Source: a virus
Lineage: Duplodnaviria; Caudoviricetes
Length of the DNA: 35,926 nucleotides
Reading direction: 5' to 3' (one strand)
IMG/VR virus record: IMGVR_UViG_3300025451_000033
Coordinates: 1-35,926 of that record
Both the position numbers and the translations under genes were made by a program. Under the pieces are notes generated by a model. The model was not told where the DNA came from. It did no database searches and saw nothing but the letters and a program-made list of their open reading frames with translations. Below are positions 2,276 through 35,926 of this stretch, piece after piece. How positions within the stretch are numbered: the first letter of the stretch is position 1; the number at the start of each line of letters is the position of its first letter.

Positions 2276-2317
2276 ATAATAAGCTAACCAGATCATTAGG
2301 TCAAGAACTAATTTAGC
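2276..2317 (-). promoter_or_regulatory. Sigma70-type promoter TTGACC-17-TATTAT inside 21-bp repeat copy 2
   Basis: -35 at 2304..2299, -10 at 2281..2276, ATG 7 nt downstream. Confidence 0.75.
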
Positions 2318-2951
2318 TAGTCATGACGATTCTTCTAACAACCCCCAAAGAAAGGCTTGTTCCTTCGCTTTGAAGAATATCAACGATTTTTTGAAAGCTT
2401 GCTCCTCTTTTCCTCAAGTCAAGGATTCTATCAACGATTGGTTGTTGTTCGGGGCAGGGGACAAGAAAGCCATTCACAACCTTTTTTCCAAAACCTACGC
2501 GTCCAACGCTTTTTCCTTGCTTAACCATTTCCTTCATTGCTGTTGATGTTCTCAAACCAATTGTTTGTCTTTCCCATTCTGAAATAACAGTCATCAAGTT
2601 AATGTACATTCGACCATTTGGTGTTTTCGTATCTATGTTTTCTCCAATTGACTTAATGCTAAAGTTCGTTTTGGAGAACGTTTCCACCAGCGTTTGCAAA
2701 TCCCTTACGCTTCTGGTCAGTCGGTCAAGAGAAGAAATGACCATCCCTTCAAAGCAAAAGCGATTGTCAATGATAAACTTAAGATACTTTCGATTCAAGT
2801 CTTTGCCCGAACATCCAATATCATAAACAATATCATGTAGCTCCAAATCATGAGCCTTACAATAGTCTTTGATTCTCCTTTCTTGAGCATCTGGTGATAT
2901 CATTTGTTTTTCAAGTTCAAGTGAGCTTCTAACATAGCCTATGTAACTCAT
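2313..2951 (-). CDS. Small serine recombinase (resolvase/invertase family)
   Basis: GYVRSS catalytic motif, DIGCSGKDLNR, SSLDRLTRS, ISEWERQTIGLRT. Confidence 0.92.
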   Translation of the reverse strand: MSYIGYVRSSLELEKQMISPDAQERRIKDYCKAHDLELHDIVYDIGCSGKDLNRKYLKFIIDNRFCFEGMVISSLDRLTRSVRDLQTLVETFSKTNFSIKSIGENIDTKTPNGRMYINLMTVISEWERQTIGLRTSTAMKEMVKQGKSVGRVGFGKKVVNGFLVPCPEQQPIVDRILDLRKRGASFQKIVDILQSEGTSLSLGVVRRIVMTS

Positions 2952-4057
2952 GAGTTAATCTTTTCATAATCAGCTTTCCAATCATTACTTACCTTGGAAG
3001 CATAGTTGAGAACAGTCGCAAAATTCTCATGACCAGCCCAACGCATAACAATGGGAGCGCTTACTCCCTTTTCCAACCATCGTGTGATAGCAGTGTGACG
3101 GCAAGAATAAAAGATAAGATATTTCCTTGAGCTAAACCCTGCTCGTTTCTTTAGTTTAGCCCACATTTTAGTAAAGATGTTATCTCTAGCGGTTCGATGT
3201 CTAGAGTATTTGTTAGGAAAAACAATGTTCTGGTGTCCGTTTTGACGTTTTAGTTTCTCCAAAGCAACAATAACATCATTGCTCATGGGAACTTGACGAT
3301 CTTTTTTATTCTTTGTTGTAAAGTCATTATCGTTTGTAATTCTAATTAGTTTGTTCTCAAAATCAACATCATCCCAGCAAAGTTGTCTTAGCTCAGCTGG
3401 TCTTAGTCCGCAGTAAATGCTAACAACATAAAAGGCTGAAACAACATAAGGCTCAACCTTTGTTGCTTCCAAAAAGTTGTCTATTTCTTCTTGACTCCTA
3501 AACATGTCCCGACGTTCGGGACCTTTTGGCATTTTCACTTTCTTGGTAATAGGAACACTTGTTATCCAGCCGCTTAGACAAGCCTCGTTCAAAAGGCTAA
3601 TCAACAGCGTAACGTGCATATTGATGGAAGTGTTAGAAAGGTTTCCTTTGGGCATTCTGTACCTATTGCCCATGTTAGGTTTCTTTGCCTGGTCACTTAC
3701 AAAATCTTGGATTCTTTCTCGTGTGATTTCTTCAAGCAAACAGTTTTCACCAAAGAAAGGAACAAGATGGTTGTCATATGTTTGTTGGTCTTTGTAAAAA
3801 GCTTTCTTGCTTGCTCTGATTATCTTCCATTTGTCAAAGATTGATTTAAGCGTTTTAGCATCTGGATTATAATCGCTTGATTTCTCTTGTCTAATCTTTT
3901 CTAGTTTTTCATTGCTTATTTTCTCTTCCAATCCTAGCTTAAATTTGTTTGCTTGTAGTTCATCAATAAAGCTTTTAGAAAACCGCTTGCGTCCGCTCCC
4001 CCATTGAACGACCCATGTCGGGATTTCCTTGTCTTTGCGCTTGAAGATCGTTGCCAT
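2948..4057 (-). CDS. int: Tyrosine integrase
   Basis: GLRPAEL (R), TTKNKK (K), FYSCRH, WAGH, NY (Y). Start moved to MATIFKRK at 4057 because of the GAGAGGG RBS. Confidence 0.92.
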   Translation of the reverse strand: MATIFKRKDKEIPTWVVQWGSGRKRFSKSFIDELQANKFKLGLEEKISNEKLEKIRQEKSSDYNPDAKTLKSIFDKWKIIRASKKAFYKDQQTYDNHLVPFFGENCLLEEITRERIQDFVSDQAKKPNMGNRYRMPKGNLSNTSINMHVTLLISLLNEACLSGWITSVPITKKVKMPKGPERRDMFRSQEEIDNFLEATKVEPYVVSAFYVVSIYCGLRPAELRQLCWDDVDFENKLIRITNDNDFTTKNKKDRQVPMSNDVIVALEKLKRQNGHQNIVFPNKYSRHRTARDNIFTKMWAKLKKRAGFSSRKYLIFYSCRHTAITRWLEKGVSAPIVMRWAGHENFATVLNYASKVSNDWKADYEKINS

Positions 4058-4099
4058 GTTGTACCCTCTCAAAATCCCCGTGAAAAACGCCCTTTGGAA

Positions 4100-4365
4100 A
4101 AGTATGCAACTGGTTTGGGATTCCCGGGCGCTCAGTTGCAACCTGTCAAGACTCTTTACTACCTATGTGCAACTGACCGGAATTGTTGTGCTTTGTGGTC
4201 GTTTTGGTGTTCCTAGTTGCACGTGGTTTTGACTCAATGTGCAACTGGCGAGTATGCAACCCTCGAATTTCCCGGGAAAAGCTCATGAAGCCTCAGAACT
4301 ATACATTGCCCGCACCCCGGAAAATAGCCAGATTTTGCATAAAGTTTCTTCGGGTATGCACCCCA
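4100..4365. repeat. Cluster of TGCAAC(T/C) boxes in both orientations, candidate attP arm sites
   Basis: Boxes near 4102, 4133 (inverted), 4165, 4214 (inverted), 4237, 4252 and a variant at 4354, in non-coding DNA next to int. Confidence 0.55.
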
Positions 4366-4645
4366 ACGACCACTGAACAACTACCTGAACGCCCCGTAAA
4401 ACGCCCGTCTCGCCTCAGAAAAAGTTTGACATCAAAAACCTTTCGTGCCGAACGATTGGTCAATCAACCTTAGCAAAAAAATCTTTGCCAAAGGTCGCCA
4501 CCAAAAGCCCTTTGGCTCGCGAGGTTCCCAACGCTACGCCAGAACGCCGCGAAGGCGCGCATTGACCCGTCCAGCCTCAGCGTTGCCATTCTATGAGAGC
4601 GAGAGCGGCTCTACGTGCCAACGAGCCGGCGGTTATATATGTTTC

Positions 4646-5161
4646 ATGAAGCAATTAACTCTCTATATATTGGTAAATAAGATTAGCGGAAGAACGTATA
4701 TTGGACAAACTAGACAAGTGCTAAAAAGAAGAATGAGGGAACATAAGTTCGATGCGACTAGAAGTGACCTTCCGTTATATGCCGATATTAAGAAATTAGG
4801 CTTCTCATCATTTGCTAGCCTGACAGTAGCTGTTTTCTCAACGAGAGAAGAGGCGTGGAAAGCCGAGAAAGAGTTAATATCCTTTTATAAAAAGCTAGGA
4901 TTGCAACTGTATAACATGTCAGAAGGCGGAAGGGGACCAACAGGTGTTAAAAGAAGTGAGATTAGCATAGCAAAAATGAGCGGCGAAAATCATGGTGCTG
5001 TAAAATTAACAGATATTCAAGTGGATGAAATTAGAAAACACGTTGATGATGGAATTCTTAGTTATTTAGAAATTGCGATTAAGTATAAAATATCTAGACA
5101 GTACGTAAGGAAGCTACACTTGAGAACGTCCCGCAAAAATCGCACTTGTGTGATGGGGTAA
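4646..5161 (+). CDS. GIY-YIG homing endonuclease with C-terminal HTH
   Basis: LYILVNKISGRTYIGQT..RMREH, EKELI, YNMSEGG, GENHGAVKLT plus HTH. Likely leaderless start at 4646 (TATATA 6 nt upstream). Confidence 0.88.
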   Translation: MKQLTLYILVNKISGRTYIGQTRQVLKRRMREHKFDATRSDLPLYADIKKLGFSSFASLTVAVFSTREEAWKAEKELISFYKKLGLQLYNMSEGGRGPTGVKRSEISIAKMSGENHGAVKLTDIQVDEIRKHVDDGILSYLEIAIKYKISRQYVRKLHLRTSRKNRTCVMG

Positions 5162-12286: not shown

Positions 12287-12649
12287 ATGTTAAGTAAAGC
12301 CGATAAAATAAGAATGTCAATTTATCTTGGCATGAGTCTTGGTGACTATGCTGTTTTTACAGGAACCAAAGAGTTTGAAAATGACGCTGATATCGTTTCT
12401 GCTGTTGTAAAAACACTAGACGACCTTGATTTAATTTCTGATAAGCTCCAAGAAATATCTTTACAAGGAAACGCTTCAAAGGTTGATGAGATTGTTGTTA
12501 AGCAAGCTCATGCAATAGCCTTGCTTTCTATGCAAGGAAGAAAACTAGTAAAGAGATTAACAATGCTAACAAACATAGATAAGTGGAGCGATTGTTTTTC
12601 TTCATCAACGGAGTTTGCTCCTCCTATGTATCGCCGCGGGTTTCAATGA
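12287..12649 (+). CDS. Putative head-tail adaptor
   Basis: Synteny, size, AGGAG RBS. Confidence 0.55.
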   Translation: MLSKADKIRMSIYLGMSLGDYAVFTGTKEFENDADIVSAVVKTLDDLDLISDKLQEISLQGNASKVDEIVVKQAHAIALLSMQGRKLVKRLTMLTNIDKWSDCFSSSTEFAPPMYRRGFQ

Positions 12650-13086
12650 GCTTGGTTGGCTCGCTCCTTCCCATGGTCGATGCTCTTCGGGGTTACGCTT
12701 CAACGTTGGGAGCTCGCCCGTATTCAATGACGGTCGTTCAAAGTGTGGGGGGAGGGGATTACCTTTTCGATCCCGACGCTCCGATAACCTCAACATCAAC
12801 AACAATTTCTTGTAATTCCTTTGCTCCTCATATTGTTAATACTTCTTCTAAGTTTGCAATGAGTGATAAGAACACAAGAGAAATGTATTGGAAGGTAGTC
12901 CTTACTCCTAAGTTCGATGGAGGCGGATTTGAGTTACCAGAAAATACAAATAACTCAAGCTGTCAATACATAATCAAGGGTCCTAATCTTTGCTCAACTG
13001 GTATCGTTTGCTCTCTTGTTTCTTGCGAACAAACAGCCACAAAAGTAACTTTGATTCTGCGATCTTCTGGAAAGCAAGCGCCATGA
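12646..13086 (+). CDS. Putative head closure protein
   Basis: ATGA-coupled start (MSLVGSLL); beta-rich; synteny. Confidence 0.5.
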   Translation: MSLVGSLLPMVDALRGYASTLGARPYSMTVVQSVGGGDYLFDPDAPITSTSTTISCNSFAPHIVNTSSKFAMSDKNTREMYWKVVLTPKFDGGGFELPENTNNSSCQYIIKGPNLCSTGIVCSLVSCEQTATKVTLILRSSGKQAP

Positions 13087-13535
13087 TTGTTAATGTAAAT
13101 ACTGCTAGAGTTAGAGCTAGAATGAGAACATTAACGAACGGCGTTGAGAACGTTGCTTCTGAAATGATTTCAACATTGGCAGAAGTGCAACAAACAAATG
13201 CTAAGTCTTCCAAGCTTTTCAAAACCCATTCGCCTAATGGTGGTTTGCGAGCGAATATTATCATCGAGAAAATGGAGCGATTTACCTCAACGGTAAAAGC
13301 AAATAAGTTTTATGCTGTCTATGTAGAAAAAGGAAATGGCAAGCCTGGTGATTATATTTATCCAGTAAGAGCCAAAGCTTTGAGGTTCGTAATTAATGGA
13401 GAGTTGGTTTTTAGAAAGCGTGTTAAAACTTCTGCTCCTCGTCCATTTATGGGAACAGCATTTGAACTTACAAAACGATTCGCTCCTTCTTATCTAAACT
13501 CTAGACTATCAAGATTCGTAAAGGATGGAACATGA
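13083..13535 (+). CDS. Neck/tail completion protein (HK97 gp10-like)
   Basis: GGLRANI, YAVYVEKG, PRPFMGTAF motifs; ATGA-coupled start. Confidence 0.75.
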   Translation: MIVNVNTARVRARMRTLTNGVENVASEMISTLAEVQQTNAKSSKLFKTHSPNGGLRANIIIEKMERFTSTVKANKFYAVYVEKGNGKPGDYIYPVRAKALRFVINGELVFRKRVKTSAPRPFMGTAFELTKRFAPSYLNSRLSRFVKDGT

Positions 13536-14266
13536 ACGATCTGTTAAATATTGGATTGCTTAGTTATCCATTTGAAAATAAACTTCCTGGTGTTAGCTTT
13601 CTAAAACACAACGATCCTGGCTTATATGGTTTTGTTCGTTTCCTAGAAGCGATAGCAACGTCTCTTGTTCTTCCTAATTACATTGCTAACTTAGATTTGT
13701 TAGAGTCCAAAAGCTTGTTAGGTGATTTAGCATTAGCCGATGGTTATCGTTTCTTTCAAAGTGTTATTCCTTATAGCTTGTCTGATTCGTTTGATGTAAC
13801 CAAGCAAGCCTTTCCGTTCCTTAATATCGAAAAGACAGGCTCAGCAGTTGTTTATAACAGATACGGAAAACAAGTTGTTCGTTCATCGTTGGTAGCAAAC
13901 GCTGTTCTTGCTCCGATGGATGTTAGACAATTCGCTGTTCTTAACCATACTCTAGACCATATCGCAAAGTCGATTAACTCTGTTATTTTAATTGGTGAGT
14001 TTTCAGACTTTGACGGAATAACAAATTCAACAGGAATTGACTTAATTACATTAGGTCGATCTGATTTTGGAAGCTTTAGACTAAGCGATAAAGCAAACGT
14101 GTTTATGCCGTGTTGCTCAATGACCTTTGAAATGGACGAGGTGATATCGTTCTCATCAACAAACACGTCAGAAATTCCTGGTGTGATAAAAACCGCTTAT
14201 CAATTATCTAGTATCTTAGATGACGACTTAAAACTATTCGACCAGCATGTCGATTTAAATGGATAA
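13532..14266 (+). CDS. Putative tail terminator protein
   Basis: Position before the sheath gene; FPFLNIEK segment. Confidence 0.5.
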   Translation: MNDLLNIGLLSYPFENKLPGVSFLKHNDPGLYGFVRFLEAIATSLVLPNYIANLDLLESKSLLGDLALADGYRFFQSVIPYSLSDSFDVTKQAFPFLNIEKTGSAVVYNRYGKQVVRSSLVANAVLAPMDVRQFAVLNHTLDHIAKSINSVILIGEFSDFDGITNSTGIDLITLGRSDFGSFRLSDKANVFMPCCSMTFEMDEVISFSSTNTSEIPGVIKTAYQLSSILDDDLKLFDQHVDLNG

Positions 14267-14505: not shown

Positions 14506-15967
14506 ATGGCTATATTAGATCCGTCAAACGCAACTCCGAAACTTGCTATTAATGTAAGTTTCCAAAAAGGTCCGTCTTCAAGTGGTAGCTCTGATTATTC
14601 TATTCTATTAATCGGAAATAAATTAAGCTCAGGAACAGGGACCGATGCAACTCTTTATGGTCCTCAAGATATGAGTTCTGATAGCGATGCGGCTGGTTTA
14701 TTTGGGCGCGGAAGCGAATTAGCTCTTATGGTCAAAGACTGTTTAGCTAAAAACAAAAAATCAACTGTCTATGCAATGAGCGTTGCTGAGGGTGTTTCTT
14801 CTACTGTCGCAACTGGTACAATTACCTTTACTTCTGCTGCTACTTCTAACGCTACTGTTACTGTTTGGGTTGGTTCAAAAACAGTAAGCTTTGGTGTTGT
14901 ATCAGGTGACGCAATTGCTGTTCAAGCCGCTGCTTGTGCTGCTGCTATCACTGCTAATGTTGATTTACCTGTTACAGCTTCAGCTTCTCTAGGTGTTTGC
15001 ACAGTAACATCTAAAAATAAAGGTCTAAGATCAAATCTTATAAAGATTTCAGCCAAAGCTTCTAATAGCTATGGCACCACGATTAGCCCTTTAACAATGA
15101 CCGCGCTAACAGGTGGAACTGTTCAGGATTCACTAGCCGCCGCTTTAGCTGTGATTGTTGGACAGCGTTTTTACTCAATCGTTGTTGCTCAGGATGACGC
15201 TACTAACTTAGGCTTGCTAAAAACTCATATCGCTAGCTTAGAAGATCCAATGATTGGACTTCGCCAGCGTGGTTTTTGTGCTAGCGTTGATACCGCTGGT
15301 AACGCAACTACTGTTGCTATCGGTCTTGATGACGAAAGACTTTGCCTTGTTTGGCAAGGTGGAAGCGATTGCTTACCGCGTGAATTAGCTGTTGATGTTG
15401 CTTCACAGATTTGTCTTGCTGAAATCGGAGATATTCCTGTTTGTAACTTTAATGGTCTTCAGCTAAGTCTTCCTGTTCCGCGTTCAAAAACCAAACCCAC
15501 ACCCGCACAAATCAAAGCTGCTTTAAACAATGGCATTTCCCCTATTGATTGTGATGTTGTTTGGTAAATGTTTTCTAGTAAAGGCAATTACCACTAGATC
15601 GACAAATGGTCTCGGAGCTTCTGATTATCGAGTTCGTGATCTTCACAAAGTATTTATCTGTGATAAACTAGCTGATGATCTTGCTGCTAGATATTATGAT
15701 TTCTTCCAAGGTAAAAACGTAGCGGACGATCCCCTTCCTAATCAGCCCCCCGTTCCTGGTGCCGTTTGCCCGCGAGACGTTAAGGCTATGATTTTCTCTG
15801 TGCTCGATACTTACTCAGCTCGTGGATTAATTGAGCAGGTGCAAGCATCAAAAGACCAGCTAGTTGTTACTCGCCCTTCTGGCAGCAACGCTCTAGAGGT
15901 TACACTTAATGTTGATGTTATCAACGTTCTTGATCAAGTTTCCATTCAACAGAATCAGGTAGGATAA
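14506..15967 (+). CDS. Tail sheath protein (Mu gpL-like), split by a +1 frame break near 15555-15567
   Basis: ILLIGNK, AAGLFGRGSELALM, TVTSKNKG and ALNNGISP lie in 14506..15567; the continuation GKCFLVKAITT..DYR..DVINVLDQ lies in 15530..15967. Confidence 0.85.
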
Positions 15968-15968
15968 T

Positions 15969-16349
15969 ATGGCTAGCGAATTTAAAAAGTATTCTAACGT
16001 AACAGTTGCTATCAATGGAACTTTAAGCGCTCAAGCGACTTCCATTCAATTAACCCTTTCCTCAAATGATCAAATGGTCAAAACGATTCTTCTTGGAATG
16101 GCTGGTTCCACTGAGGGTGCTAAGACTTGTGAATATTCAATCGACTTTGTTATTCCCAGTTCTGGTTTCGAGGTTAATTTCTCAAAGCTATTAGCTGTTT
16201 CTGAGACTGTTAGTCTTGAGTTTAGAGTTGGTGGTAACGTATGTGTTCTTACGGACGCCGTTATCCAAAGCTCACAACTTAGCTATGCTGTTGATGGAAT
16301 AACCAGTCTTTCCATTAGCGGGTTCTCAAGCTTTAGTCAATTCGATTAA
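15969..16349 (+). CDS. Tail tube protein
   Basis: 126 aa, beta-rich, directly after the sheath. Confidence 0.8.
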   Translation: MASEFKKYSNVTVAINGTLSAQATSIQLTLSSNDQMVKTILLGMAGSTEGAKTCEYSIDFVIPSSGFEVNFSKLLAVSETVSLEFRVGGNVCVLTDAVIQSSQLSYAVDGITSLSISGFSSFSQFD

Positions 16350-22788: not shown

Positions 22789-23286
22789 TTAACGAGATTT
22801 GAAGTTGATAATTCTTGAAACAGTGGGTTGTGTAATATCAATAAGAGCTGCTATCTCGTACTGAGTAAAGCTTTTGCTTTTGTACATTGCACGGATTAGA
22901 GTTACTTCGTTATCTTTGATTGTGCAATGACCGTTTTTCTCTCCTGAAATCTTGTAACCTATTCCTTTGAGACCTTGCCCGCCATCATTGATGTTTAGTA
23001 CGGTTGATTTGGAGTTTCTAAAAGCGCTGATTAATTTGGTTTCTGCTGATTCGGCTTCTGCTCGTGTAGCAAAACGAGCAACTTCTTCAATGTGCAAATA
23101 AGAATCAGGAGTTGTTGATATTTCCTGGTAAAGAGGATGGCTTGAGGTTTTCTTTGAGTTAGCAGCGCTTTTGTGAGCAGAGAAACGCTGTTGTAAAGTA
23201 AGACCAGTAACACCAACATAGATGGAATTAGTAAAGTTGTTGGTAATTACATAAGTTGAGAAAGTTTTCTTAGTCGATTTGATCAT
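22789..23286 (-). CDS. GIY-YIG homing endonuclease with C-terminal HTH, antisense within the baseplate operon
   Basis: TYVITNNFTNSIYVGVT..QRFSAH, ETKLI, LNINDGG, GEKNGHCTI plus HTH. Confidence 0.88.
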   Translation of the reverse strand: MIKSTKKTFSTYVITNNFTNSIYVGVTGLTLQQRFSAHKSAANSKKTSSHPLYQEISTTPDSYLHIEEVARFATRAEAESAETKLISAFRNSKSTVLNINDGGQGLKGIGYKISGEKNGHCTIKDNEVTLIRAMYKSKSFTQYEIAALIDITQPTVSRIINFKSR

Positions 23287-23401
23287 TTTGTTTTCCAATT
23301 GTTTAAAGTGTTTGGTCTTATTAGCATTAGACCTACATACTTATATGTTGTTATGCATACTTTCATGGAAAATATTTAAACTAATTTCTTGACATGTAGA
23401 A

Positions 23402-30107: not shown

Positions 30108-30359
30108 ATGGATCCAATGATATTCAAAGTCTTAGCAAGTGTTTTCGGCTTAGCGATTGGTATCATTGGGTACTTTGTTAATAAGATGATAACAGATCAA
30201 AAGAAAGAGACGCAAGATATGAAAGAGTCCATCAAAGATATTGAAAAAGAAGTAAAAGAACTACAGATTCAATTAGCCTCTAACTCTTCTACGACTAGAG
30301 AAAAGTTAGAGTCAATATCCGAGAAACTTTGCGCTTTGGCTGGTATTAAAAAGAAGTAA
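30108..30359 (+). CDS. Single-TM coiled-coil protein (holin/XhlA-like)
   Basis: N-terminal TM VLASVFGLAIGIIGYFV then coiled coil; GAGG RBS. Confidence 0.55.
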   Translation: MDPMIFKVLASVFGLAIGIIGYFVNKMITDQKKETQDMKESIKDIEKEVKELQIQLASNSSTTREKLESISEKLCALAGIKKK

Positions 30360-31121: not shown

Positions 31122-31206
31122 CAAAAAGAAAAGAACCGATAGGGTTATTTATCGGTTCTTTTGGTGTGTTGTCTCAGTATTTAAGGAGGGATAATCAGTC
31201 CCTACC
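31122..31206 (-). ncRNA. Putative small RNA (or 3' UTR), unit 1
   Basis: ATATTAA box, 5' hairpin AGGGA/TCCCT, CCTCCTTA, 13-bp terminator stem 31129-31162 plus T-tract. Confidence 0.4.
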
Positions 31207-31220
31207 TTAATATATCGTTA

Positions 31221-31628
31221 TTATTTTGATTTCTTGGAAAGTCTATAATTGAAAACACCATTTCCAAAATCACTATCTACTCTTACTTGTTTGGTAAATC
31301 CAATTGATTGTCTAACGCTGTCACCTATGTCCATTGCTTCGTCTTTTGTTTTCACACGAGCAAGAACAGTCCAATCACCATCAAAAGGAGGATACATGCA
31401 AGGGTCTTTAGCCCAATTTTGAAGGTTAAAATAACTATCCCATACATGTTTATCTAATGAAACGTTGGAATAGATATGCTCTGAGTTGTCGTTTTTACGA
31501 ATGAATACACGGTTTTTATATTCACCAACGGTTCTTAGGCAAAGATAAATCGTGTATCCTGGATTTTTATCCGAGTCTCCGAAGCATTCCTCTACTTTAG
31601 CGGCGTAAATCATTTGTAAGTAATTCAT
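31221..31628 (-). CDS. Hypothetical protein, possibly degenerate GIY-YIG fold
   Basis: ATGA-coupled to the polymerase-like gene; YTIYLC..KNRVFI and WTVLARVKTKDEAM resemble the three GIY-YIG proteins in this window. Confidence 0.55.
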   Translation of the reverse strand: MNYLQMIYAAKVEECFGDSDKNPGYTIYLCLRTVGEYKNRVFIRKNDNSEHIYSNVSLDKHVWDSYFNLQNWAKDPCMYPPFDGDWTVLARVKTKDEAMDIGDSVRQSIGFTKQVRVDSDFGNGVFNYRLSKKSK

Positions 31629-32965
31629 TCTGATAATTCCTTTTCTGTTATGTTAATGTTATGGATGCCAGAAGATTCTCTAGCAATTTCAATTAGTTTA
31701 GGGTGCAATGGAGAGTTTGTTATAAATCCATCGTGGCAGAGAACGCCAACCCCTACACCATAGCTTGGGGCTGCTGCTACCATTGTCGATATGATTCTAA
31801 CTTCCATCCCCTGCAAGATATGAGCGGCTAACTTTCTTTTCATTTGGTTTTCGCATCCATTAAATTGGGTTAGTTCAAGTTTCTTATCAGCCATATTGGT
31901 AATATATTTACCATAGATTGTTGTTTTTGCTTTGTGATCGCTCAACCATTTCTCGCTGACTATTATTTCTAGCCATTGGTCAAGAGAGGAGCGTAATGGT
32001 TTTATTGATTTACAAAACGCTTGCAAACAAGCGTCAAATTGATCTTCTGTGTGATTGGGATAAATAGATCTTAGTGCCTTACCGGCATCCTTGAATTGCA
32101 TTTGACTCATTTTGGGAAATATTTCACCACCAAAAAGAGTTGAGTAAAAGAGAATTTTGAACATTCCCTTGTCATTGAAGCAATTTTGGATTGTTTTTCT
32201 AAAGCAATCGTCATTGATGTATGTTTCTAGCCATTCGCATTTGATGTTATCAGCGTTAAAACAATGAAGAAGACAAGCTGCTTGAGCAGAAACAAGATCA
32301 TAATTATGATTTGTAAGGTTCTTTCCAGTTAGTATCCTTCCTCTGTACTTCGCTTCTAACTGTTGTGCTCCGCCATTCTCAAAAAGACGACCAGTTCTTG
32401 CTATTTTATAAGAAGAAACATAAGATCCTGTTTGACCCATTGATCTAATGTGAGAAATATTGTGTCTATTGCTTGTCTTTTGGTGTTTTATTTCTTCGTA
32501 GATAGCTAAAACTTCCTCATAATTGACATCTTGAGGGATTAATGATTCTACTGCTGATAGTAATAGTTTAGGTTGAGGGTGTTTGTTCTCATCAATTTTA
32601 GATGTAATTGGTTTGTAAAGTTTCCCAGTGTTAGAATCAACGATTTGCTCGTTTAAGTTATCATCGTAAGATAGAAAAGCGTCTATTATACTAGAATCCG
32701 CTGCAAATTCTCTACATTCATTGTCGAAAAAAGAGTGTTCTTGTATTTTGAACAGTCCAGATTCTTCTATTTCCTTGTATGTTTCGCTTGATTTGCCGTC
32801 AAAATGATCTTGAATAAAAGTAAAAGGAACAGGTGTAAATTCATTTCCAGACCTTAAACTAGAACAAATAACATGACCTAAAAACTTAGTTATTTTCTTG
32901 CTCCCCTGTTGCCTTAAGAAAGAAAAAGCACTTTTTGTGGTTGGTTTATGGGAAATATAAGACAT
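31625..32965 (-). CDS. Minimal family-A-like polymerase (TV-Pol-like), probable replication protein
   Basis: RTGRLF, motif A NYDLVSAQ, motif B-like R..K...YSTLFGG, HILQGME, motif C LCHDG; no exonuclease or helicase domain; GAAAGG RBS. Confidence 0.75.
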   Translation of the reverse strand: MSYISHKPTTKSAFSFLRQQGSKKITKFLGHVICSSLRSGNEFTPVPFTFIQDHFDGKSSETYKEIEESGLFKIQEHSFFDNECREFAADSSIIDAFLSYDDNLNEQIVDSNTGKLYKPITSKIDENKHPQPKLLLSAVESLIPQDVNYEEVLAIYEEIKHQKTSNRHNISHIRSMGQTGSYVSSYKIARTGRLFENGGAQQLEAKYRGRILTGKNLTNHNYDLVSAQAACLLHCFNADNIKCEWLETYINDDCFRKTIQNCFNDKGMFKILFYSTLFGGEIFPKMSQMQFKDAGKALRSIYPNHTEDQFDACLQAFCKSIKPLRSSLDQWLEIIVSEKWLSDHKAKTTIYGKYITNMADKKLELTQFNGCENQMKRKLAAHILQGMEVRIISTMVAAAPSYGVGVGVLCHDGFITNSPLHPKLIEIARESSGIHNINITEKELSE

Positions 32966-33004
32966 ATAGATAATACCTTTCGTGATTGCTTGGTAAGTTG
33001 TAAC

Positions 33005-33033
33005 AAGGACCCCTGCTAAGGGTCCTTTTTTTT
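33005..33033 (+). terminator. Plus-strand terminator antisense to the RHH-polymerase operon
   Basis: AAGGACCC-N7-GGGTCCTT plus T-run; the nearest + strand gene ends 2.6 kb upstream. Confidence 0.8.
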
Positions 33034-33042
33034 ATTCTCTTA

Positions 33043-33213
33043 TTAGTATTTCGGAATATTGTCTTGACTCATCGCAAGCTTGAGAAGGTCAATGGTTACT
33101 TGTGATACTGACATGCTTTGAGAGTCTGATATGTTCTTTATTTTCTGAAAAGTTTCCTCATCTAATCTAAAGATAATCGTTTTCGGTTTTGTTGCTTTTC
33201 TAGTTGAGCTCAT
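33043..33213 (-). CDS. CopG-like ribbon-helix-helix protein, 56 aa (not in ORF track)
   Basis: MSSTRKATKPKTIIFRLDEETFQKIKNISDSQSMSVSQVTIDLLKLAMSQDNIPKY*; AGGA RBS. Confidence 0.8.
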   Translation of the reverse strand: MSSTRKATKPKTIIFRLDEETFQKIKNISDSQSMSVSQVTIDLLKLAMSQDNIPKY

Positions 33214-33249
33214 GTTGTTTTCCTGTTCGTCAAGTGTTGTATTACAACT

Positions 33250-33280
33250 ATATCATAAGATCGTGATATGCATAGGTCGA
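33250..33280 (-). promoter_or_regulatory. Promoter TCGACC-17-TATGAT overlapped by inverted repeat ATATCA-N8-TGATAT
   Basis: -35 at 33280..33275, -10 at 33257..33252, palindrome 33250..33269. Confidence 0.6.
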
Positions 33281-33289
33281 GATCTTTTT

Positions 33290-33725
33290 TTAGCAGGGCA
33301 GGGGAGGCGCCCGGCGCCCAACATGTATGCTCAAGAAGAGTGTATGTCTTTTATAGGTGAGAGTATAGGTAAGAGTATGAGTAAGATATTGTTTATTGTA
33401 GATAGTTACAAAAAAGTCAAAAAAAATACAGAATACAGATATGAGTATGAGTATATAAGATATCTATTAGTATCTACTTCTATTAATCTTCTTAGCTACT
33501 TCTTCTATACTTCTACTCTCTTCTTCTACCTGTCTAAACCTGTCTAGGGGTTAGTATGTCCATTTCCTAAATATTTAGTTTCACCAACCACCTTGTTTTA
33601 CCTTACCAAACTCACTTTTGCTGTCCAAAAAAGATAGGTAGCACCAGACATTAAATCAACCTATAAACATCCTTCGTTCGTCCCTCCAAAATCCCCCGAC
33701 CCGACCCCCAGCCCAACCCCAAACG
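33290..33725. other. Candidate replication origin region
   Basis: GC-rich GGCGCC repeat, purine-rich tract switching to pyrimidine-rich at ~33460, CCTGTCTA x2, five C-runs at 33693..33720. Confidence 0.4.
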
Positions 33726-33759
33726 CACAAATTAAATTATAATATCCAAGCATAACGTT

Positions 33760-34077
33760 ATGCAATCCATCATCCCTAATTTCACAATCCCAACAAAGGA
33801 ACAATTTCCAAAGATGACAAGAAAAAACATTCGTCTTGTTTATCAGTCCCTACAAAATCTAGGAATGGTAACAATCACAAACTCTTTTATGAGCTTAAAG
33901 ACTTATCAAAACTTTCATGATCATCTTGTTAGAATAAAGCAAATTCAACCCAACCAATATTTTCAATGGGGACCTGCTCCTATCTCCATCCAAAATATCA
34001 CAAACAACCATATTATCTTTCAAGGGTATAATTCCAAAGGTCAAACACTCCTCCTTACCCTCACCAATCTTTATTAA
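33760..34077 (+). CDS. Hypothetical protein
   Basis: 105-codon ORF with no recognised motif. Confidence 0.5.
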   Translation: MQSIIPNFTIPTKEQFPKMTRKNIRLVYQSLQNLGMVTITNSFMSLKTYQNFHDHLVRIKQIQPNQYFQWGPAPISIQNITNNHIIFQGYNSKGQTLLLTLTNLY

Positions 34078-34205
34078 CGCCCCTTTAAAGCGATTTTCAT
34101 TCCTACTCCTATAGCTGAATCCACCAAACCCACCAAAGCCCCTTAAAAGCCAACTAAGGCGTTCTAATTAAACTTCACAAACAACGCATATCAACACATA
34201 CTAAT

Positions 34206-34367
34206 ATGAACAGATTATGCGTAACAATAGACGAAACTTCTCTTTCCCAGCTAGAAGAACTTACTAACCAGTCTCAGATCAAAATATCAAAATCAGCAAT
34301 GATTAGATTTGTTATTGAGCAGGCTTATAAACAATATCAAGAGTCTCTCAAAACAAAAGGTAAATAA
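34206..34367 (+). CDS. Ribbon-helix-helix protein, 53 aa (not in ORF track)
   Basis: MNRLCVTIDETSLSQLEELTNQSQIKISKSAMIRFVIEQAYKQYQESLKTKGK*; TAATG-coupled to the next gene. Confidence 0.8.
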   Translation: MNRLCVTIDETSLSQLEELTNQSQIKISKSAMIRFVIEQAYKQYQESLKTKGK

Positions 34368-34807
34368 TGGACTTTATAAATCTTCTATTAAATATCAATG
34401 TTCTTCTTCATTTACTAGGAATAGCTTCAATTACTTATTTAGTTAGGACGATAGTAGAATATTTTATCCCCTCAGTGGTCTCTAAGAACTTTTACAAAAA
34501 TCTCGCACTTCCCATTTTTCCTATAATCGTGTCTATAGCCTTTTTCAATGTACTTCCTATCGCTCTCCCATTCGATATCACTCAAACCCCGGCAAGGGTC
34601 CTTTACAGCCTAACAATAGGTCTTCTTTCTTCTCAGACCTATAGGATGATTCGTGCTCAGATAAAGGCTAAGTTTCCTTCTTCTGATTTGCCTGATATCC
34701 CAGATCTTTCTATTCAGGATCTTGAAAGGTTACATGAGGAAACTAATCCTAGTCCTAAATCAACTAACCCAACCCTACCAGATCCTCCTACTAAGAATCC
34801 TACCTAA
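34367..34807 (+). CDS. Three-TM membrane protein, holin-like
   Basis: Three hydrophobic segments and a charged, Pro-rich tail. Confidence 0.6.
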   Translation: MDFINLLLNINVLLHLLGIASITYLVRTIVEYFIPSVVSKNFYKNLALPIFPIIVSIAFFNVLPIALPFDITQTPARVLYSLTIGLLSSQTYRMIRAQIKAKFPSSDLPDIPDLSIQDLERLHEETNPSPKSTNPTLPDPPTKNPT

Positions 34808-35003
34808 GGGAATAATAGATAAAACAGTGTTAAATATTGATTGGTATTGAGTATTTAAGCGAATATTGCACCTTATAGCTATGCAAATTTTGCGTAGTAA
34901 GATGCGCTTTGTGCTCACAGTCCATAGTTTATCTATTAGAATATACACAATTCTAGTATAATAGCGTGTTTTTGCACTATTTGCCATTATTCTACTCATA
35001 AAT

Positions 35004-35059
35004 AGCGTTGTTATGTTCATGATTTGCCAAAGAATAAGCGTTGTTATGTTCAAGATTTG
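35004..35059. repeat. 23-bp direct repeat x2 (33-bp period)
   Basis: AGCGTTGTTATGTTCA(T/A)GATTTG at 35004 and 35037. Confidence 0.8.
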
Positions 35060-35236
35060 TTCATAATTTAGCGTTTAGCCGTGTTTTCTCTTTCAAAATC
35101 CCTAAAATCATTCATAAAACCATAGCAAAATGCCCCACTCATTACCCCTTAGTAATCAATCATTATTTCATCTATTAGCTATTGACAATCTCAAATCAAC
35201 ATCTAATCAACCATCTTTATTATCGAATTTCAAGAA

Positions 35237-35362
35237 ACCCGCATAAAACGCTTCTTTTACCCCCTAGAGAAAATAGAATTGTTGGTTAGGAATTAGGGTT
35301 AGTAATAGGCTAAAATAGGGTTCATGTTCGTATGCGAATACGTGGATGGTACGAAGGTTCCC
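35237..35362. repeat. Direct repeat, left flank copy 2
   Basis: Identical to 1..126. Confidence 0.95.
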
Positions 35363-35651
35363 TTTGCAACGGTCTGGACTAAATCACTATGTTCAGGTTT
35401 AGCGAAGGTTGTTTTCAAAAGTAGCGTTTGGTCAAGTATGTGTTATGATTGTTGTGTGTGGTTCTTGAAAACAATTCAAGTCGTTGTAATAATAGTAGTT
35501 GATTTTTGTTTTCAAATGATTGTTTTCAAATAAAATAGTCAAGATGATAGGTTTTTGATTGATTTATTTGAATACAAACATTTGTTTTCAATATTTATAT
35601 GGTAATAAGTTTGTATTCAAATAGTACAACAGATCTCAAGAGGAAATAAAT

Positions 35652-35926
35652 ATGAATAGTTTCGATGATGATAATGATAATGATGGTGATATGTTTGGTT
35701 CTGATTTAACAGACTTTAATCCTAATCTTGATAAGGAGGAAATTGAAAACACACTAAAAGAAATACATGATAAAGCTTATACTGGCGAGGATAAGACTTT
35801 AGACAGTAAAGCTAAGGTTCGTAAGGAATATGACCGTCCGGTATCATTTAGGATAAAAGGTGATCTTGATAAGAAAATAGATGCTATGGTTTTGAATACA
35901 AAGAAATCAAGAACAGATGTTTTTAA
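35652..35926 (+). CDS. Alternative allele of ORF 297..1070 (acidic N-terminus plus the same RHH), truncated by window end
   Basis: GAGG RBS; MNSFDDDNDNDGDMFGSDLTD...AKVR joins in frame to KEYDRPVSFRIKGDLDKK. Confidence 0.8.
   Translation, partial: MNSFDDDNDNDGDMFGSDLTDFNPNLDKEEIENTLKEIHDKAYTGEDKTLDSKAKVRKEYDRPVSFRIKGDLDKKIDAMVLNTKKSRTDVF
35821..35926. repeat. Direct repeat, right flank copy 2
   Basis: Identical to 778..883. Confidence 0.95.

Follow-up and report, generated by a model that had tools for sequence, protein, structure and literature searches.

The window analyzed here is a complete contig of 35,926 bp from a freshwater phage (IMG/VR record IMGVR_UViG_3300025451_000033), and its subject is a cassette on the minus strand in which an origin-like tract, a promoter and a gene for a small ribbon-helix-helix (RHH) protein are followed, after a short gap, by the gene for a polymerase-like protein of 446 aa (31625..32965). 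At its stop codon the latter gene overlaps by 4 nt with an orphan open reading frame (ORF) of 135 aa on the same strand (31221..31628), which found no usable library match and encodes a possible partner. The cassette is real, and its enzyme is of a known kind, belonging to a large TV-Pol-like family that recurs widely, with an activity that is predicted from a model. The initial annotation of this DNA had proposed a candidate new system; this novelty is not supported, as the type of enzyme is that of TV-Pol, described in 2008, with divPolA2, described in 2024, as a sister group.

An AlphaFold2 model of the 446-aa protein, built from 148 sequences (pLDDT 94.9), comprises a winged helix (about residues 9-110) and a family-A polymerase core (117-446), and the 3'-5' exonuclease region is absent. 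Residues 117-446 find their best structural match class in DNA polymerase I, with Z scores of 14.8-17.1 for the individual chains and, at the upper end of this range, an alignment to Klenow over 289 residues with an rmsd of 4.4. Single-subunit RNA polymerases (RNAP) are represented by T7 RNAP (Z 12.6), yeast mitochondrial RNAP (Z 12.3, 375 residues) and N4 vRNAP (Z 9.1, 399 residues), and a Foldseek search with the model returned DNA polymerases only, among the matches listed. Residues ~9-108 resemble many winged helices, such as MarR, MotA and ORC, with Z scores of 5.5-6.4 that are each middling alone. Together with a Shine-Dalgarno (SD)-like AAAGGT at 32980-32975, 9 nt before the ATG, the fold upholds the PolA-like polymerase with its ribosome binding site that had been annotated at this position. 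Sequence searches with the protein against Pfam, PHROG and PDB gave no match, the 148-row family profile found no relevant chain in the PDB, NCBIfam had matches for none of 27 family members, and the PHROG matches of the family were to unnamed families only.

As evidenced by the motif alignment, R193, D223, E388 and D412 are invariant in 148 of 148 family members, and K270 is retained in 147. Both catalytic aspartates of the palm (D223 and D412) are hence kept throughout, as in TV-Pol, and the beta-hairpin bearing a conserved arginine that marks this group is found with R193 in a TGR motif (strands E186-188 and E194-196), preceded in the model by helices 133-140, 149-159 and 165-176, the stretch considered for the two-helix coiled-coil thumb of TV-Pol. 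The RxxxK motif of the TV-Pol fingers reads K266-x3-K270 in the window protein, and among 147 family members position -4 of K270 is an arginine in 7 and either arginine or lysine in 31. Note that gp30 of phage Ma-LMM01 likewise lacks this arginine, and the motif may not be universal in TV-Pol. The steric-gate glutamate is present in none of the 148 sequences (glutamine in 136, histidine in 12), the Y766 equivalent in motif B is a tyrosine in only 6, and the glutamate of motif C occurs in none; the Klenow numbers E710 and Y766 are those of PMC3715850. The protein thus falls outside the canonical family A DNA polymerases, as it has no Pfam DNA_pol_A match, lacks the glutamates of motifs A and C and belongs to a family in which the tyrosine of motif B is rare. 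In Klenow, E710 serves as the ribonucleotide gate, and the variant E710Q is described as a slow mutator (PMC3715850). Judged by its residues, the protein would fit the role of a primase or another sugar-tolerant enzyme of low fidelity better than that of a replicase.

Pfam and PHROG scans of 46 window ORFs gave no match to helicase, primase, polymerase, Rep or partition families, and six-frame searches of the window for ParA (PF13614), ParB (PF02195) and DnaB were empty, with positive controls. The 446-aa gene is the sole recognizable replication gene of the phage genome, and the role of initiator that the initial annotation had assigned to it is therefore plausible. It might also be the phage's own strand-displacing replicative DNA polymerase that both primes and copies the 35-kb genome, as it is the only replication gene in the window and in a related circular genome (G002), and as TV-Pol is predicted to have primase plus polymerase activity (Iyer et al., PMC2579912). 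However, no exonuclease, helicase or SSB was recognized, the fidelity residues are lost, and two genomes (L012 and G008) retain a full PolA alongside the family gene. At L012 this gene is located ahead of DnaB and the complete PolA and is therefore not the replicase there; at L018 it is located ahead of clamp-loader genes. We consider a replicase very unlikely.

A different possibility is that the protein acts as a minimal single-subunit RNA polymerase, whose winged helix reads the promoters from which phage genes are transcribed or a long R-loop transcript is made. The equivalents of E710, Y766 and E883 are missing, and the mitochondrial, T7 and N4 RNAPs are among the structural matches. The model further contains a beta-hairpin (343-370) with a conserved N357, at what we take to be the position of the T7-type specificity loop. 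Such a function has been suggested by Yutin et al. for divPolA2 (PMC11348598). Against this stand the higher Z scores of DNA polymerase I and the Foldseek result, a length of about half that of T7 RNAP, the position ahead of replication genes at L012 and L018, and the presence of the gene in elements that have no virion genes (L021-L023), so that we regard an RNA polymerase as decidedly unlikely.

A profile built from three sequences retrieved 679 clusters at 50% identity for this family. The loci with DNA context all stem from sister clades and none from that of the window itself (P0002, P0004, P0005), a four-row clade for which alone we used a quick version of the tree with long branches. 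Duplicate or truncated loci and those near a contig end were left out of the locus counts (L005, L008, L020, L024, L025, L027, L031, L032, L035, L039, L055), and L013 was also left out of the upstream-gap and motif counts. Not counting L008, which duplicates L007, thirteen virus records carry a homologue, five with a tyrosine integrase and two with ParA above the cut-off. The eight records of 25-46 kb comprise four integrase-bearing proviruses, two linear fragments and two circles (G002 and G013) that have terminal repeats and in which no integrase was found, and G003 and G002 have head and portal PHROG families in common with the window. Of 27 loci whose neighbors were scanned, 10 have a tyrosine integrase at a distance of up to 4.5-6 kb and none has a partition or Rep family, and several homologue loci are integrase-resolvase islands without virion genes. 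Neighbors of the kind linked to TV-Pol are found at 2313-4141 in the window, at L021, L022, L042, L011, L026, L028, L033, L036 and L037, and beside gp30. One of the islands (L021:981-2959) carries, along with the polymerase, an SMODS nucleotidyltransferase and an S_4TM effector as CBASS-like defense cargo.

Two further members are circular. The 37.5-kb tailed phage G013 (L071:1118-4646; L017) has ParA 427 nt after the polymerase-family gene, and no Rep, recombinase or integrase was matched among its 35 ORFs scanned; it looks like a true phage-plasmid and would be the family's best candidate for one. A 13.7-kb Calothrix plasmid (L002, AP018296.1) encodes an intact, unannotated homologue of 558 aa across the record start (12503-13693 plus 1-486), and its only other recognized gene is a serine recombinase; the homologue is likely the Rep of this plasmid. 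The family is used by integrating phages, islands and big phages, and probably by some episomes.

The variability of these neighborhoods raises the question of whether the gene is only an accessory or hitch-hiking cassette that phage replication can do without, either a polymerase for repair or the remnant of a TV-Pol mobile element. IS605 stands beside gp30 of Ma-LMM01, copies at L004, L006 and L036 are frameshifted or split, and jumbo phages also carry family genes. Nevertheless, no other initiator is recognizable in the window, the catalytic residues are fully conserved, and the early-operon position with the order RHH gene, KilA-C antirepressor gene and polymerase gene recurs in 6 of 45 loci. 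We hold a dispensable cassette to be highly doubtful.

The gene upstream of the polymerase (33043..33213, minus strand) encodes a protein of 56 aa that we assign to the RHH proteins of Arc/CopG type, likely an autorepressor. It shows weak matches to Arc-like and repressor PHROGs (E 1.4e-4 to 7e-3), and its predicted homodimer has the antiparallel ribbon register, with an ipSAE of 0.42 where the best control reached 0.00; of solved pairs, 21 of 30 attain the mark applied to this score, and of single chains none of 23. Individual runs shared at least 85% of contacts, with a pLDDT of at least 69. It is possible that the predicted dimer passes through its likeness to solved RHH dimers. ORF, matches and dimer nevertheless bear out the RHH gene that the initial annotation had added here. 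At E 0.01 the protein found no homologue except itself.

The operon is preceded by a sigma70-like promoter, TCGACC-17-TATGAT (33280..33252, minus strand), which is moderately good, its score being equalled or exceeded in 6.75% of 400 random 95-nt windows, with weights that represent the sigma-70 consensus. Just downstream of the -10 element and over the predicted transcription start lies the palindrome GTTGTA-N-TACAAC (33236-33248), a candidate RHH operator. A promoter overlapped by a palindrome, as had been described, is thus present, but the palindrome is a modest one, and 22 6-bp palindromes of this type occur in the window. The arrangement of pMV158, with the RHH gene first in the operon and an operator over the promoter, is in place with respect to gene and palindrome, and binding is predicted; the RHH protein likely represses the operon. 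A second RHH gene (34206..34367, plus strand, from the Pfam and PHROG scans) diverges from the first, and a further ORF of this type is situated at the circle junction, so that RHH control appears to be general in this phage and not specific to replication.

Between the RHH and polymerase ORFs lies a gap of 77 nt (32966-33042). On the plus strand it contains a GC-rich hairpin followed by U8 that resembles an intrinsic terminator (33005..33033, with the hairpin at 33005-33027 and T8 at 33026-33033). In a stricter scan this was one of 3 strong hairpin-U sites on the plus strand of the entire 35.9 kb, and no plus-strand gene ends there; both the coordinates and the orphan status of the terminator that had been noted earlier are thus correct. 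Read on the minus strand, the stem of the gap is followed by UUGUUACA and could form a leaky terminator at a distance of 15 nt from the RHH stop codon. The terminator 19-mer had no exact match in viral contigs, and a search of Rfam with 30-35.9 kb yielded just 4 sub-threshold chance matches. A hypothetical antisense RNA of ~53 nt (32981..33033, plus strand) would start from a -10 element GATAAT at 32969-32974 with a poor -35 element, and this best candidate, TTTATG-18-GATAAT, is equalled or exceeded by 63% of random windows, that is, at chance level; the promoter scan tool listed no antisense promoter in the gap. A look-up of RNA records for 31200-34400 returned none, and two runs of possible RNA type consist of contigs, probably of DNA, that leave the gap uncovered. 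For the hairpin we find a role as leaky or two-way terminator nearly an even bet, the end of an antisense RNA is a tentative second choice, and an insulator against plus-strand read-through is rather unlikely.

Relatives were examined for the same arrangement. A same-strand RHH gene within 1.3 kb upstream of the polymerase is found in 11 of 45 loci, 7 of the RHH-bearing loci being seeds of the profile; at L009 the RHH-like ORF was recognized by eye only. The RHH gene immediately precedes the polymerase gene in 4 of 45 (the window, L007, L015 and L030) and is 0.7 kb upstream in one more. Terminator-like hairpins between -200 and +20 are enriched in the antisense orientation (6 of 44 homologues versus 17 of 312 background genes, p ~0.05) and equally in the sense orientation (8 of 44 versus 24 of 312, p ~0.05), with related loci counted separately. 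Among Nostoc and Nodularia prophages of a single gene order, the U-tract is sense in L011, L026, L028 and L033 and antisense in L036 and L037. In two Calothrix proviruses (L015 and L030) with the order RHH gene, gap and polymerase gene, a hairpin is retained within the gap; its U-tract is weak in L015, and in L030 it is a U5 on the opposite strand. Mixed orientation of this kind would be expected of a hairpin that ends or dampens an upstream transcript. Conservation of an RHH gene with an opposite-strand terminator upstream of homologues, which the initial annotation had named as a check, is seen at L030, but hairpin orientation varies, most loci have no RHH gene upstream, and the comparison is with sister clades only. 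The gap of L015 (2851-2863) and L030 also contains a conserved TGTGGATAG box, which has one mismatch to what we presume to be the DnaA box consensus.

According to the initial annotation, an antisense RNA of ~60-70 nt (~32970..33033) together with RHH autorepression would set the copy number of a phage-plasmid. With its promoter at chance level and U-tracts of homologue hairpins on either strand, this RNA is not supported. The phage-plasmid fared no better, in view of a tyrosine integrase with an arm-type N-terminus (2948..4141, minus strand; PF00589, E 8.6e-26), intact and ~5 kb from the 56-aa RHH gene across the circle junction, and of a small serine resolvase/invertase in operon with it (2313..2951, minus strand; PF00239, E 6.8e-27), and in view of the missing ParA, ParB and DnaB and of relatives of the same order that are integrated. 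The latter, with RHH gene, hairpin and polymerase gene in a row (L015 and L030/L005), are integrase-bearing proviruses. Because the arm-type integrase is intact, integration would be a likelier state of the phage than a plasmid.

There are points in favor of a phage-plasmid in which RHH autorepression sets the copy number together with a ~53-nt counter-transcribed RNA that blocks translation of the polymerase-initiator. Its geometry is that of pMV158, with an orphan plus-strand terminator, a gap of 77 nt and a best -10 element that places the start beside the SD sequence; antisense-type terminators show the enrichment given above, L030 has RHH gene, hairpin and U5 on the opposite strand, circles in which no integrase was detected exist in the family (G013 with ParA after the gene, and G002 of 29 kb with an RHH gene abutting the polymerase gene), and dimers of the circle might be resolved by the serine resolvase. 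Against it, the integrase is intact and ParA and ParB are missing, the antisense promoter is at chance level and sense-type terminators are equally enriched, orientation flips among prophages of one gene order, the U-tract of L015 is weak, L015 and L030/L005 are integrated, and the gap of G002 measures only 1 nt. We judge this control circuit improbable.

The state of the contig bears on the same issue. Positions 1-126 are repeated at 35237-35362 and 778-883 at 35821-35926, and contigs of run X1 contain both repeat paths; the window therefore represents a circle of 35.0-35.2 kb with a two-allele bubble. Circular assembly is expected of any pac or cos phage. The virus record labels the window as linear and 44% complete, the latter in our opinion an underestimate. 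The bubble reflects two alleles of one early gene that coexist in the phage population (127-777 versus 35363-35820). In one of them (297-1070), RHH-like segments flank a GIY-YIG nuclease domain; the other, from 35652 onward, reads 153 aa round the circle, is devoid of this domain and has its own repeat-rich upstream region. GIY-YIG homing-endonuclease-like genes occur three times in the 35 kb (297-1070, 4445-5161 and 22789-23298), and G002 also has three. Pfam and PHROG scans identified the terminase, portal, major head, sheath, tube and baseplate proteins of a myophage. The tail sheath (14506-15967) is split into two overlapping ORFs of 353 and 145 aa that match successive parts of phrog_165, which may be a frameshift, a natural split or an assembly error. 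A holin-like gene is located at 30108-30359, an endolysin was not recognized among the ORFs scanned, and no tRNA was found in the window.

Upstream of the operon, the non-coding tract 33333..33525 contains degenerate 12-bp direct repeats, inverted copies and a switch from a purine stretch to a pyrimidine stretch centered near 33459; a related contig has a 12-base deletion within it. Strong purine/pyrimidine skew was found in 9 of 18 upstream non-coding gaps of homologues compared with 15 of 131 gaps elsewhere (p 3e-4 by Fisher's test, with loci that are not fully independent). The repeats and the switch agree with the origin-like region seen in the initial annotation, but a shared motif and the GC skew fail as support. 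The candidate motif GTATAGGT (from the window, L007 and L009) gave 6 upstream matches versus ~1.7 expected, 3 of them being the discovery set, and was not among the top k-mers. Cumulative GC skew peaks at 33459, with a trough at 16094, half a circle apart; four-fold sites yield no switch independent of the coding strand, and the extremes are scattered in 28 homologue loci, so that the skew was rejected as a marker of the origin. No DnaA boxes were detected near the cassette. A second non-coding region (34808-35651) has 33-nt-spaced repeats (AGCGTTGTTATGTTCA), several copies of TTGTTTTCAAA and a perfect 15-bp inverted repeat, its local GC skew turns from negative to positive near 35270, and it might serve as an alternative origin or control region. 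A conserved non-coding element of ~110 nt is shared by L007 (9600-9760) and L009 (7010-7150), phages of 29 and 94 kb that are otherwise unlike each other; it comes after an extended polypurine tract, upstream of their RHH-polymerase pair, and appears to be a good origin candidate for that clade.

The explanation that we prefer, and to which we give an even chance, is that the 446-aa TV-Pol-type enzyme is the replication initiator and primer-maker of an integrating temperate myophage and stands under RHH control. The winged helix would bind the repeats at 33333-33525, the polymerase core would lay down a short RNA or mixed primer at the origin-like tract, and host replisome proteins would take over after excision or infection. 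The RHH dimer would bind the palindrome over its own promoter, and the hairpin 15 nt past the RHH stop codon might act as a two-way leaky terminator, by virtue of which much RHH protein and little polymerase would be made; this last is the weakest step.

Several observations weigh against this explanation. Integration of the phage is deduced from the integrase and the relatives and not from an observed integrated copy or att junction, and these relatives belong to sister clades. The fold of the enzyme aligns to single-subunit RNA polymerases across 375-399 residues. An RHH gene is absent upstream in 34 of 45 loci, and the U-tract in the gap is perfect on the plus strand and poor on the minus strand, which favors an antisense role over a sense terminator. 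By our ORF rule, 18 of the 45 loci had a non-coding gap of at least 350 nt upstream and 27 had none, and no common origin motif held up when tested across the homologue loci. The skew peak at 33459 is no proof of an origin, because divergent transcription coincides with it and four-fold sites are biased to coding-strand C. With no common motif, a confounded skew peak and a second repeat-rich region available, assignment of the origin to 33333-33525 is a reasonable guess.

If the enzyme does prime at its own origin, it would be a one-protein system for origin recognition and priming on the scaffold of Pol I and T7 RNA polymerase. A recognizable initiator is lacking from many small temperate phages and integrative elements, and in several of them this family, which is invisible to Pfam and NCBIfam, fills the slot. 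The prediction of primase-polymerases dates from 2008, and the phage offers a compact cassette of 2.6 kb with origin-like tract, promoter, repressor and enzyme.

Of the known systems, the copG/RNAII/repB module of pMV158 is similar in its order of promoter-operator, RHH gene, short gap with opposite-strand terminator and replication gene (PMC4485353). Its RNAII has 48 nt and starts next to the SD sequence (PMC4485353), and the predicted ~53-nt RNA beside the SD sequence in the window resembles it, but with an antisense promoter at chance level the likeness claimed in the initial annotation is confined to geometry. RepB, moreover, is a rolling-circle HUH initiator that acts at a nick site (PMC4485353), in contrast to the polymerase fold found here, and the present element is a 35-kb integrase-bearing phage with a hypothetical antisense RNA. 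The boldest reading would make the winged-helix TV-Pol-type polymerase a self-priming initiator able to run tailed phages as plasmids, here with a pMV158-type circuit of RHH protein and ~53-nt antisense RNA, and thereby define a replicon class without HUH, wHTH-only or AEP Rep, with G013 and the 13.7-kb Calothrix plasmid as further members; we see only a slim chance for it. CyRepX1/2 of Synechocystis pSYSX are likewise unannotated Reps with antisense RNAs over the translation start (PMC10899382). They were found in an autonomous-replication screen and are helicase-like by structure (PMC10899382); a relationship to them was dismissed, as there was no sign of one and plasmid searches with P0001 and P0023 matched only two other records.

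CCPol-MP of SCCmec is an exonuclease-less family-A polymerase of a mobile element and a primase that primes de novo (bioRxiv 2022.12.02.518924, PMC10201439). Different from the window protein, it needs an OB-fold partner and a helicase, retains part of the exonuclease fold and has no N-terminal domain; partners of this kind were not recognized in the window, and the comparison is by description. It is the only tested enzyme of the wider TV-Pol group that we found, and for the TV-Pol-like branch of the window protein no functional test was found in the open-access literature. The divPolA2 proteins (Yutin et al. 2024, PMC11348598) are similar in size (~430 aa), in the combination of an N-terminal globular domain with a palm and no exonuclease, and in their structural matches (Pol I, mitochondrial RNAP with Z ~12 and N4 vRNAP with ~9). 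Their reference AUR84708, however, keeps RxxxK, a glutamate in the gate position and, in motif C, FDE, it was not matched by the family profile (hhalign probability 1.6%, E 0.031, 42 columns), and divPolA2 is described from phages of 80-140 kb that have another polymerase (PMC11348598).

The closest relation is to TV-Pol, defined computationally by Iyer, Abhiman and Aravind in 2008 (PMC2579912) as minimal family-A cores without nuclease that are predicted primase-polymerases, with a member in Ma-LMM01. A subset carries an N-terminal domain and has genes for a resolvase, lambda integrase, IS605 or KilA-C as linked neighbors (PMC2579912). Shared features are a length of 400-600 aa, the minimal family-A core, the arginine hairpin, the two aspartates and the absence of a nuclease domain, as well as gamma-delta resolvase, lambda-type integrase, IS605 and KilA-C genes as neighbors. 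The family profile matches Ma-LMM01 gp30, beside IS605 transposases, with E 4e-40, and gp30 may be the TV-Pol that the paper lists for this phage. As RxxxK is not kept and reads KxxxK in the window protein, we call the family TV-Pol-like rather than a strict member of TV-Pol. Further differences are that the N-terminal domain is modeled as a winged helix and not as all-helical, that the window has no D5 helicase, and that the gene follows an RHH gene and is part of a complete tailed-phage genome.

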